From a bacterium (GTDB taxonomy: Bacteria > Planctomycetota > JAFGQW01), in contig JAUHXU010000003.1 of assembly GCA_030426805.1 (NCBI GenBank), positions 665,488 through 729,487 of the forward strand: a DNA stretch of 64,000 nucleotides, read 5' to 3'. A program made the translations under genes and the position numbers. Shown here piece after piece: positions 1,864 through 4,272 of this stretch. The notes beneath the pieces were generated by a model. That model was not told where the DNA came from. It did not search any database and was given only the letters and a program-made list of their open reading frames with translations. The stretch's first letter is position 1, and every line of letters begins with the position of its first letter.

Positions 1864-1906
1864 TTGACGGATCCGGGAAACATCCTAATATCCGAATATT
1901 CGGATA
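1864..1906 (+). promoter_or_regulatory. Sigma70-like promoter (TTGACG-N16-TAATAT) with an overlapping 18-nt perfect palindrome TATCCGAATATTCGGATA; putative autoregulatory operator of the downstream ArsR-type regulator
   Basis: -35 at 1864-1869 and -10 at 1886-1891. The perfect inverted repeat at 1889-1906 lies in an unusually AT-rich patch for this roughly 70% GC sequence. Confidence 0.5.
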
Positions 1907-1946
1907 CCCGGTTTCGCGAATCGAGACAGATCGGCAGACACGGACG

Positions 1947-2909
1947 ATGGACGACCAGGCGGTCTTCAAGGCGATGGCAGACGCGACGCGGCGCAACATC
2001 CTGCAGCTCGCATCGCGCCAGGAGCTCAGCGTGAGCGAACTGGTCGACTGCCTGCGTCAGCCCCAGTCCACCGTTTCGCGCCACCTGAAGGTCCTCCGCG
2101 ATGCAGGACTTCTCCACGACCGACGCGAAGGCACCGCCGTGCTCTACGCGGCGCCGGAGAACGCGACGAACGGCAACGGCGACGCGGACCTGCAGGGCCA
2201 CCTCGTCCATTGGCTGGCCGACCGGCCGCTGCCCCCGTCGCTCGCGCGGCGCCTGCGCGGCATCGTCCAGCGGCGGGCGGGGCGCAGTGACGCGTTCTTC
2301 TCGCAGGTCGGTCACCGCTGGGACCAGATGCGACTCGACGCCTTCGGCGACGCGTTCCACCTCGAGGCGCTCGCGATGCTGCTGCCGGGGGACTGGACCG
2401 TCGCCGACATCGGAACCGGGACCGGCTACCTCCTGCCGACGCTCGGGCGTGCGGTCGAGCGCGTGATCGCGGTCGACCCGGTCGCGGCGATGCTCGACAT
2501 CGCCCGCGACCGCGCGGCGGCCGCGGGCGTCGACAACGTCTCGTTCCGCGAGGGCGGACTGTCGCGGCTGCCGCTGGACGACGGTGCGGTCGATCTCGCG
2601 CTCGCCGTCCTCGTCTTGCATCACGTGCCGTCGCCGGCCGATGCGCTGGCCGAGATCTGCCGCGTCGTGCGGCCCGGCGGCCGCGTGCTGATCGTCGAGC
2701 AGTATGCGCACAGCCTCGAGGCGTTCCACGATCGGATGCAGGATCGCTGGTGGGGCTTCGAGCCGGAGGCGCTCGCCGAGTCGGTGACCAGCGCCGGCTT
2801 CGATGCCGTGCGCCACCGACGCCTGCCGGCGAACGGCGCGGCGGACGCGCCCGACCTCTTCGCACTCACAGCCACTCGACCGGACGGCGCGACGCCGAGC
2901 CGGAATTGA
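1947..2909 (+). CDS. sahR: ArsR/SmtB-type winged-helix regulator fused to a SAM-dependent methyltransferase-like domain (SahR-like SAH-responsive regulator)
   Basis: N-terminus [48 protein letters not shown] is an ArsR HTH. The C-terminus [14 protein letters not shown]...VIAVDP...LVLHHVPSP...[12 protein letters not shown] is a class I methyltransferase fold. It lies immediately upstream of ahcY, which is the SahR arrangement. Start chosen at the ATG for MDDQAV; the ORF-track start at 1815 lies within the promoter. Confidence 0.65.
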
Positions 2910-2961
2910 CTTCTTTCGACTGTTCCCAACGAACCCACGGCCCCGGGCCAAGGAGACTTCG

Positions 2962-4272
2962 ATGACGCAAGCGACGCAAGACTACAAGGTCAAGGACATC
3001 GGCCTCGCCGAGTACGGCCGCAAGGAGATCACGATTGCCGAGCACGAGATGCCCGGCCTGATGGCGCTGCGCGAGCGCTACGGTGAGTCGAAGCCGCTGA
3101 CCGGCGCGCGCATCGCCGGCTGCCTCCACATGACGGTGCAGACCGCCGTGCTGATCGAGACGCTCGTCGCGCTCGGCGCCGAGGTGCGCTGGAGCTCGTG
3201 CAACATCTTCAGCACGCAGGACCACGCCGCCGCGGCGATCGCGGCCGCCGGGATTCCGGTCTTCGCGTGGAAGGGCGAGACGCTCGAGGAGTACGACTGG
3301 TGCATCGAGCAGACGCTGCACTTCGGCGACAAGCCGCTCAACATGATCCTGGATGACGGCGGTGACCTCACCGTCCTGATCCACGACAAGTATCCCGAGC
3401 TGATGAAGGGCATCCACGGCATCAGCGAAGAGACCACGACCGGTGTCGCGCGCCTCTACCAGATGGTCGAGGACGGCTCGCTCGGCTGCCCGGCGATCAA
3501 CGTCAACGACAGCGTGACGAAGTCGAAGTTCGACAACCTCTACGGCTGCCGCGAGTCGCTGATGGACGGCATCAAGCGCGCGACCGACGTGATGATCGCC
3601 GGCAAGAAGTGCGTCGTCGCTGGCTACGGCGACGTCGGCAAGGGCTGCGCGCAGGCGTTCCGCGGCCTCGGTGCGACCGTCTTCATCACCGAGATCGACC
3701 CGATCAACGCGCTGCAAGCCGCGATGGAGGGTTTCCAGGTCGTGCGCATGGACGACGCGTGCGCGTGGGGCGACATCTTCGTGTCCAGCACCGGCAACCG
3801 CGACATCATCACGCGCGCGCACATGGACAAGATGAAGCACCAGGCGATCGTCTGCAACATCGGCCACTTCGACAACGAGATCGAGGTCGCCGCGGTGTTC
3901 GACGATCCGACGATCCAGCGCGTCGAGGTCAAGCCGCAGGTCGACCAGGTGATCTGGCCGGATGGCAAGACCGTCACGATTCTCGCCGAGGGCCGCCTCG
4001 TCAACCTCGGTTGCGCGACCGGCCACCCGAGCTTCGTGATGAGCACGAGCTTCACGAACCAGGTGATCGCGCAGATCGAGCTGTGGGAAAACCGCGACGG
4101 CGACAAGTACGAGCACCGCGTCTACATGCTGCCGAAGAAGCTCGACGAAGAGGTCGCGCGCCTGCACATCGACAAGCTCGGCGTCCAGCTCACGACGCTG
4201 ACCCAGGCGCAGGCGGACTATCTCGGCGTCCCGGTCGAGGGTCCCTACAAGCCGGAGCACTACCGCTACTGA
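2962..4272 (+). CDS. ahcY: S-adenosyl-L-homocysteine hydrolase (adenosylhomocysteinase)
   Basis: Strong full-length similarity pattern: [34 protein letters not shown]...[19 protein letters not shown] (NAD-binding)...[13 protein letters not shown]; 436 aa. Confidence 0.95.

Follow-up and report, generated by a model that had tools for sequence, protein, structure and literature searches.

A probable SahR-family repressor and its conserved operator upstream of ahcY in a planctomycete

The regulator-ahcY operon and its operator

The stretch of DNA analysed here (64 kb of contig JAUHXU010000003.1, assembly GCA_030426805.1; hereafter the window, with positions counted from its first letter) carries, close to its beginning, a regulator gene followed by ahcY, which encodes adenosylhomocysteinase, the hydrolase of S-adenosylhomocysteine (SAH). 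The regulator is composed of an ArsR-type winged helix-turn-helix (wHTH) and of a methyltransferase-like domain, and both genes lie on the same strand behind a predicted promoter (Table 1). They very probably form the sahR-ahcY operon of a Phycisphaerae-class planctomycete, under the control of a repressor of the SahR family. An earlier note, written from the sequence alone, had described such a fusion directly upstream of ahcY and a perfect 18-nt palindromic operator over the -10 hexamer; all these features are found again, and the arrangement is kept in relatives.

The 52-nt gap between the two genes contains the ribosome-binding site of ahcY, and a scan of this gap detected neither a promoter nor a terminator. 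Past the ahcY stop codon, a hairpin (-47.9 kcal/mol, z = -4.6, with no equally stable structure among 200 shuffles) is likely the 3' end of the operon. The gene upstream of the operon (650-1678), which has no Pfam match, is divergent and on the opposite strand, and this orientation rules out that the palindrome is its terminator. A scan of the whole 64-kb window with Rfam yielded no family at gathering threshold, so that no SAH riboswitch is found upstream of ahcY.

The palindrome begins inside the -10 hexamer, of which it takes in the final three bases, and it extends over the predicted transcription start. No other match with up to three mismatches occurs in the window, nor in any of 100 dinucleotide-preserving shuffles. 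The window nevertheless holds three perfect 18-nt palindromes (starting at 1889, 5210 and 61837), against 0.66 expected from mononucleotide shuffles, and palindromy by itself is therefore weak evidence; the weight of the site comes from its conservation in orthologous promoters. The two other palindromes (5210-5227 and 61837-61854) are GC-rich and both lie within coding sequence. When a position weight matrix (PWM) of the conserved core is applied, the main site scores 31.4 bits and the best unrelated site of the window 10.7 bits. The claim that this promoter is the most AT-rich 45 bp of the window holds only in part: 1878-1922 is at the top (57.8% A+T) but ties with 45597-45641, a segment just ahead of an open reading frame (ORF) that begins at 45631 and is without a Pfam match.

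A second register overlaps the palindrome on its upstream side and scores 23.9 bits with the same matrix. From position 1880, the window reads as the consecutive 8-mers ACATCCTA, ATATCCGA, ATATTCGG and ATACCCGG. This second register suggests alternative positioning or higher-order binding of the regulator.

Table 1. Features of the regulator-ahcY operon, with boxes found upstream of relatives of the regulator
Feature	Position	Strand	Basis or remark
-35 hexamer TTGACG	1864-1869	+	consensus promoter scan; sahR-ahcY promoter
Upstream register ACATCCTAATATCCGAATAT	1880-1899		half-site ATCC at 1882-1885, 8 bp upstream of core ATCC
-10 hexamer TAATAT	1886-1891	+	consensus promoter scan; 16-nt spacer from -35
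20-bp box ATATCCGAATATTCGGATAC	1888-1907		geometry ATC-N10-GAT; upstream of own regulator gene
Perfect 18-nt palindrome TATCCGAATATTCGGATA	1889-1906		core of the 20-bp SahR-type box
sahR-like regulator gene, ATG start, 320 aa	1947-2909	+	Pfam, NCBIfam
wHTH of regulator	residues 12-56, nt 1980-2114	+	HTH_5, E 1.7e-13
Recognition helix of regulator	Q38-PQSTVSRHL-47		alignment
Methyltransferase-like domain	residues 154-249, nt 2406-2693	+	Methyltransf_11, E 5e-24
Pocket motifs of regulator	motif I D154-IGTGTG-160 (G156, G158, G160); D177; D216; H225		D177, acidic residue after strand 2
ahcY ribosome-binding site AAGGAG	2950-2955	+	inside the intergenic gap
ahcY, adenosylhomocysteinase, 436 aa	2962-4272	+	TIGR00936, 661 bits; AdoHcyase and AdoHcyase_NAD domains
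17-bp GC-rich hairpin, without T-tract	4291-4330	+	RNA fold; past ahcY stop
Box, Alpha- and Gammaproteobacteria: ATATAAAGATATCTTTATAT
Box, Leptospira: ATATCAAGATATCTTGATAT
Box, Gemmatimonadaceae: TATCCGGTCATCCGGATA
Boxes of sahR-metH Planctomycetota	L029 7912-7931; L113 1986-2001; L114 2004-2019
Loci with 8-bp-phased extra half-sites	L028 7916-7945; L048 7937-7964; L056 7925-7952

The conservation of the operator was assessed in 19 distinct loci of Phycisphaerae/Planctomycetota (the window, L002-L004, L006, L008, L010, L012, L017-L022, L099, L100, L103, L104 and L106). An ATCCG-N6-CGGAT box is present at the same place in all 19 orthologous promoters, exactly in 13 of them and with one or two mismatches in the others; in an alignment of 14 promoters, the core is exact in 10. 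The rest of the promoter is also recognisable: the spacing between the TTGAC element and the box hardly varies, TAnnAT (TATTAT, TATAAT, TAGTAT and others) occupies the -10 position, and the box-anchored consensus is TTGACA-N(about 11)-CGATAtATCCTAtTATCCGGATataCGGAT. Conservation ends abruptly 3' of CGGAT; on the 5' side it reaches 14-16 bp beyond the core and takes in the -10 hexamer and part of the spacer. In particular, the information profile of the 14 promoters is as high at an ATCC or ATTC placed exactly 8 bp before the core ATCC as it is at the core itself. The core matrix gives 16-31 bits at the main sites and at least 13 bits at the -8 register in 15 of the 19 loci. The conserved operator is thus longer than the 18-mer and includes the second, overlapping register upstream. 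In about 170 kb of DNA flanking the 19 loci, the matrix finds nothing comparable, a single site reaching 12.1 bits. A second box-like site, GTATCCGGATATACGAAATC (16.5 bits), is present at positions 10-29 of L103, 162 bp upstream of the main operator, close to the end of what is a 1.4-kb metagenome contig.

Alternatively, the palindrome could belong to the promoter, play a structural part or be bound by another factor, the regulator acting elsewhere. It is true that the -10 hexamer itself forms part of the conserved block and that perfect 18-nt palindromes are not rare in the window. However, conservation extends well past the hexamer, to the ATCC in the spacer and to the CGGAT downstream of the start, the site accompanies the regulator gene even where the genes farther out are different, and the sequence of the box shifts together with the recognition helix across phyla (see below). 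We consider this alternative very improbable, and favour the operator being the site of the regulator encoded next to it.

The regulator protein, its pocket and its relatives

The regulator is homologous, over about 290 residues, to a Sinorhizobium meliloti protein encoded upstream of metF (32% identity, E 3e-31), to a Sphingomonas protein (36% identity) and to a Leptospira protein (30% identity, E 4e-40), the homology spanning 87-93% of its length. Its N-terminus is above the NCBIfam cut-off for an ArsR/SmtB subfamily (NF033788, 82.8 bits), and residues ~150-255 also match Methyltransf_25/31 of Pfam. In an AF2 model (pLDDT 92, pTM 0.72), the wHTH occupies residues 3-68, a flexible stretch covers 69-81 and a long helix 97-133, and the methyltransferase fold is of the Rossmann type. 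The top fold matches in the Protein Data Bank (PDB), Rv2258c, RdmB, DnrK and RedM, combine a winged-helix N-domain with a methyltransferase domain bound to S-adenosylmethionine (SAM) or SAH. A sequence search of the PDB returned separate ArsR or methyltransferase matches only, and no solved fusion of the SahR type. A weak second match of the SahR proteins by tblastn in the window (27629-27952) has no Pfam support and was discarded.

The residues expected to line the pocket (Table 1), namely GxGxG, the acidic residue following strand 2, D216 and H225, show little or no variation between Phycisphaerae, S. meliloti and Leptospira. Since these motifs are conserved, a pocket for an adenosyl ligand appears to be retained, as in accepted SahR proteins. 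The earlier note had counted the retention of all catalytic motifs, together with a promoter devoid of any operator-like motif, as speaking against a sensor. The SAM-binding motifs are indeed kept, but the operator is present, and the criterion is in any case a weak one: kept SAM-binding motifs cannot argue against a sensor role because bona fide SahR proteins keep them too. The metal sites of ArsR/SmtB sensors are another matter. Neither the Cys-x-Cys nor the alpha-5 site is present in the regulator, which reads ELSVSEL in the alignment where the arsenite-binding Cys-x-Cys would stand; the corresponding sequence in ArsR of E. coli R773 is ELCVCDL. Judging from its sequence, the regulator is not a metalloid sensor.

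These data bear on a second alternative, according to which the protein would be an active methyltransferase that also binds DNA, its pairing with ahcY serving to clear its own product inhibitor, or an ArsR-type sensor of a ligand other than SAH. Every SAM-binding motif is intact, the nearest folds are true enzymes, and there is sub-threshold similarity in NCBIfam to ArsM, UbiE and other enzymes. Yet the scores against these enzyme models (ArsM, UbiE, BioC and others) are far below the cut-offs (64 versus 263 bits for ArsM), and the arsenite-binding cysteines are absent. Moreover, no candidate substrate gene is conserved near regulator-ahcY among the loci compared, and in six phyla or more the fusion is tied to ahcY, metF or metH, as would be expected of a methyl-cycle sensor rather than of an enzyme specific for one substrate. 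We therefore regard this second alternative as improbable, a SahR-type sensor being preferred. At the level of sequence, the protein agrees with the SahR family in every respect examined.

The genomic context of the relatives points in the same direction. In 16 of the 19 Phycisphaerae/Planctomycetota loci the contig is long enough to include the next gene, which is ahcY every time, directly downstream of the regulator; the outer neighbours of the pair vary. Close relatives of the regulator share up to 64% identity with it, and those that are named come from Phycisphaerae, Phycisphaerales or Planctomycetota metagenome-assembled genomes (MAGs). With a G+C content of 67-75% in the window, this bears out the idea of a non-proteobacterial, high-GC genome, as well as that of a SahR-type architecture, since full-length homologues lie upstream of metF/metH in Alphaproteobacteria and the box fits ATC-N10-GAT. 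A scan of a genome collection with the protein matched at least 599 stretches, mostly from Alphaproteobacteria, with at least six Phycisphaerae loci among the matches listed; a metagenome scan contributed five distinct loci, and 324 cluster representatives are related to the regulator at E <= 1e-30.

Nearly all of about 80 further relatives adjoin ahcY, metF-metH or metH. At 30-41% identity, the arrangements encountered are: (i) regulator-ahcY in Acidimicrobiia and Gemmatimonadaceae, (ii) regulator-ahcY-x-metH in Leptospira interrogans, (iii) ahcY divergent from the regulator in Nannocystaceae, and (iv) regulator-metF(-metH) in about 60 Alpha- and Gammaproteobacteria. In Alphaproteobacteria, this last order corresponds to the one published for SahR. 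In L. interrogans NZ_CP043881.1, the module is sahR-ahcY-ferredoxin-metH, and a perfect 24-bp palindrome, GGATATCAAGATATCTTGATATCC, lies upstream of it (L015, 3910-3935). In a second lineage of Planctomycetota, metH takes the place of ahcY next to the regulator. A search with MetH from a planctomycete matched mixed phyla, and the two loci that were opened are sahR-metH operons of this lineage, which lies outside Phycisphaerae. One Phycisphaerae MAG (L022, 5793-7377) has sahR-ahcY followed, on the same strand, by a small methyltransferase gene and a homocysteine S-methyltransferase gene (PF02574, E 4e-61). Three Maricaulis homologues (L038, L040 and L061) do not adjoin a methyl-cycle gene, and no box is recognisable in the 350 bp upstream of them; their recognition helix is of the PR type described below. 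The family is thus found in Planctomycetota, Gemmatimonadota, Acidimicrobiia, Myxococcota and Leptospira besides Proteobacteria, and the module in at least six phyla. Public annotation designates the relatives generically as 'ArsR/SmtB metalloregulators', and the searchable literature discusses SahR for Proteobacteria only, with no mention of a spirochaete SahR.

Covariation of recognition helix and box

The cross-phylum comparison, for which the proteobacterial boxes were rebuilt from sequences upstream of family members, reveals that positions 5-7 of the half-site vary with the two residues that precede [VI]SRHL in the recognition helix. All 22 loci with an ST helix (QxQ-ST-[VI]SRHL, residues 38-47 of the window protein) have a CCG-type box, and this set takes in Gemmatimonadota, Acidimicrobiia and the sahR-metH Planctomycetota, which have kept both the ST helix and the ATCCG-N6-CGGAT box. 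Of the 68 loci with a PR helix, 59 have ATAAAG-N4-CTTTAT; ATCAAG-N4-CTTGAT accompanies the SR helix of Leptospira, and ATTCG..(T/C)GGAT the PT helix of Gemmatimonadaceae (L024) and Nannocystaceae (L026). As the box follows the helix and not the target gene, the palindrome appears to be the cognate site of the adjacent protein, and this is the strongest argument in favour of that assignment.

The alpha- and gamma-proteobacterial boxes are flanked by additional copies of the half-site phased by 8 bp, for example ATAAAGATATAAAGATATCTTTATAT and ATATCTTTATATCTTTAT. Overlapping registers are therefore not special to Phycisphaerae, as these boxes carry phased copies too.

One tentative possibility, which we hold to be somewhat less probable than its converse, would bring these observations together. 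SahR would be a methyl-cycle sensor that is ancient and pan-bacterial, common to Planctomycetota, Gemmatimonadota, Actinomycetota, Myxococcota, Spirochaetota and Proteobacteria, whose specificity would be set by a two-residue helix code (ST for a CCG half-site, PR for AAA, SR for CAA and PT for TCG). Its operators would be arrays phased by 8 bp, with units close to TCCGGATA in the window and ATAAAGAT in Alphaproteobacteria, rather than single palindromes, and the two overlapping registers would be filled alternately or by a higher-order oligomer. If so, protein sequence would allow target sites in uncultured phyla to be predicted, and specificity could be re-engineered.

Predicted feedback loop, genomic surroundings and known counterparts

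SAH strongly inhibits methyltransferases, and cells must for that reason couple its removal to the methylation flux. The model with the best support, which is the mechanism published for SahR, has the operon achieve this in the following way. The regulator would use its class-I methyltransferase fold as a ligand pocket and its ArsR-type winged helix to bind, as a dimer, the conserved operator (core ATCCG-N6-CGGAT, with the second register 8 bp upstream). The operator covering the -10 hexamer and the transcription start, the bound protein would block RNA polymerase and thus repress sahR-ahcY. When methylation raises SAH, the latter would fill the pocket and the protein would leave the DNA; regulator and SAH hydrolase would then be made until SAH drops, which would close a negative feedback loop. 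This scheme builds on the anatomy, homology, synteny, operator position and helix/box covariation observed above, while repression, SAH as the ligand and release upon binding are proposed by analogy with the Desulfovibrio and Ensifer systems.

Several points weigh against the proposed control by a SahR-family repressor. SAH as the ligand, and release from DNA rather than binding to it in response, would be properties carried over from other members. Sequence alone cannot fix the effector, because identities of 30-36% match the SamR-SahR range (~30%, PMC4239095), and the SahR proteins compared here are those of S. meliloti, Sphingomonas and Leptospira. The covariation counts overstate the number of independent events because the loci are phylogenetically related. 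Finally, tblastn with MetK, MetF and MetH finds no metK, metF or metH in the 64-kb window, the PWM scan finds no further operator in the window or in the ~170 kb of flanks, and the single metK present in the loci covered, 5.7 kb from sahR in the Gemmatimonadota locus L027, has no site. The earlier note had regarded such a lack of further palindromes as telling against the proposal; it is weak in this respect, because a local, autoregulated sahR-ahcY operon needs none.

The main rival is a SamR-like variant in which, for the same architecture and operator, the pocket would respond not to SAH as an inducer but to a co-repressor, either SAM or the SAM/SAH ratio. The pocket motifs fit both SAM and SAH and cannot discriminate between them. 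SamR is itself ~30% identical to SahR and shares ATC-N10-GAT with it (PMC4239095), and the window protein stands at the same distance from alpha-proteobacterial SahR. On the other hand, SamR is held to sense SAM since its regulon lacks ahcY and other SAM-cycle genes except metK, whereas ahcY is a core target of SahR and of the SAH riboswitch (PMC4239095). Here, the regulated gene is precisely ahcY, for which induction by the substrate would be the simplest logic. A SamR-like response is thus disfavoured because the target enzyme consumes SAH; we consider it unlikely, if the least unlikely of the three alternatives, and retain a SahR-type response.

The gene following the operon (4384-5556) encodes an adenylyltransferase of the SoFic-type Fic family (NF046030, 578 bits) and has its own promoter-like site, TTGACG-17-TATCTT (4379-4407). 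A 10-bp inverted repeat, GGCGACACGT (4364-4373) and ACGTGTCGCC (4382-4391), overlaps this site and could be an operator of the Fic gene itself. An efflux cluster (8864-17501), composed of an outer-membrane factor (OEP), an adaptor of the CusB/HlyD type and a pump of the resistance-nodulation-division type (ACR_tran, E 4e-178), is unrelated to the methyl cycle. Lastly, a 1309-aa open frame on the minus strand (32830-36756) has regions 2 and 4 of an extracytoplasmic function (ECF) sigma-70 factor near its N-terminus, and six or more CarboxypepD_reg repeats come after them. Either this is an ECF sigma factor whose C-terminus is very much extended, or the ORF call has merged two genes.

To our knowledge, transcriptional regulation in Planctomycetota is almost uncharted, and the locus supplies a regulator together with its probable ligand and an operator delimited by phylogenetic footprinting. 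The covariation of helix and operator should be useful for annotation and regulon prediction in MAGs. The additions are modest: a planctomycete instance, an operator variant and a wider phyletic spread, with no new mechanism.

Compared with the classical ArsR/SmtB metalloregulators, the window protein has the same wHTH fold and the same SRHL recognition helix, but has neither the Cys-x-Cys nor the alpha-5 metal site and carries an appended ligand domain of 250 aa. The SAH riboswitch would follow the same logic, SAH inducing its own hydrolase, but at the level of RNA, and has no counterpart in the window. SamR of Xanthomonadales is a distant SahR homologue whose palindrome shares ATC-N10-GAT with the window box (Leyn et al., 2014). 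It differs by a 24-bp motif (18-20 bp for the window box) and by its targets, which are metH, metE, metK and other biosynthesis genes and not ahcY, and it has been proposed to sense SAM (PMC4239095).

Closer counterparts are found among SahR proteins themselves. That of Rhizobiales (sahR-metF of Ensifer aridi and Sinorhizobium meliloti; PMC8877191) is a full-length homologue with 31-32% identity, is likewise encoded by the first gene of a methyl-cycle operon, and also has a palindromic box ~40-80 bp upstream of the start codon. Unlike in the window, however, the gene downstream is metF and not ahcY, and the box is ACATAAACATATCTTTATGT. In E. aridi, deletion of sahR raises the activity of the sahR promoter, which amounts to autoregulation, and SahR boxes also lie upstream of ahcY, metH, metK and bhmT (PMC8877191). 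The SahR of Desulfovibrio and other Proteobacteria (DVU0606, D. alaskensis; PMC4239095) has the same combination of an ArsR wHTH and a SAM-methyltransferase-like domain, and in Desulfovibrio and P. mercurii (DND132_1481/1480) its gene adjoins ahcY, as it does here. The 20-bp palindromes of SahR and SamR in Gammaproteobacteria have the geometry ATC-10 nt-GAT (Leyn et al., 2014; PMC4239095), and the window system shares with proteobacterial SahR such a palindrome on its own promoter, implying autoregulation. It differs from proteobacterial SahR in belonging to Planctomycetota, with one operon seen to carry the site, and in its recognition helix, Q38-PQSTVSRHL-47 as against QSQPR[VI]SRHL. The inner half-site differs as well, being CCG in the window and AAA or CAA in the alpha-proteobacterial and Leptospira boxes that were retrieved.

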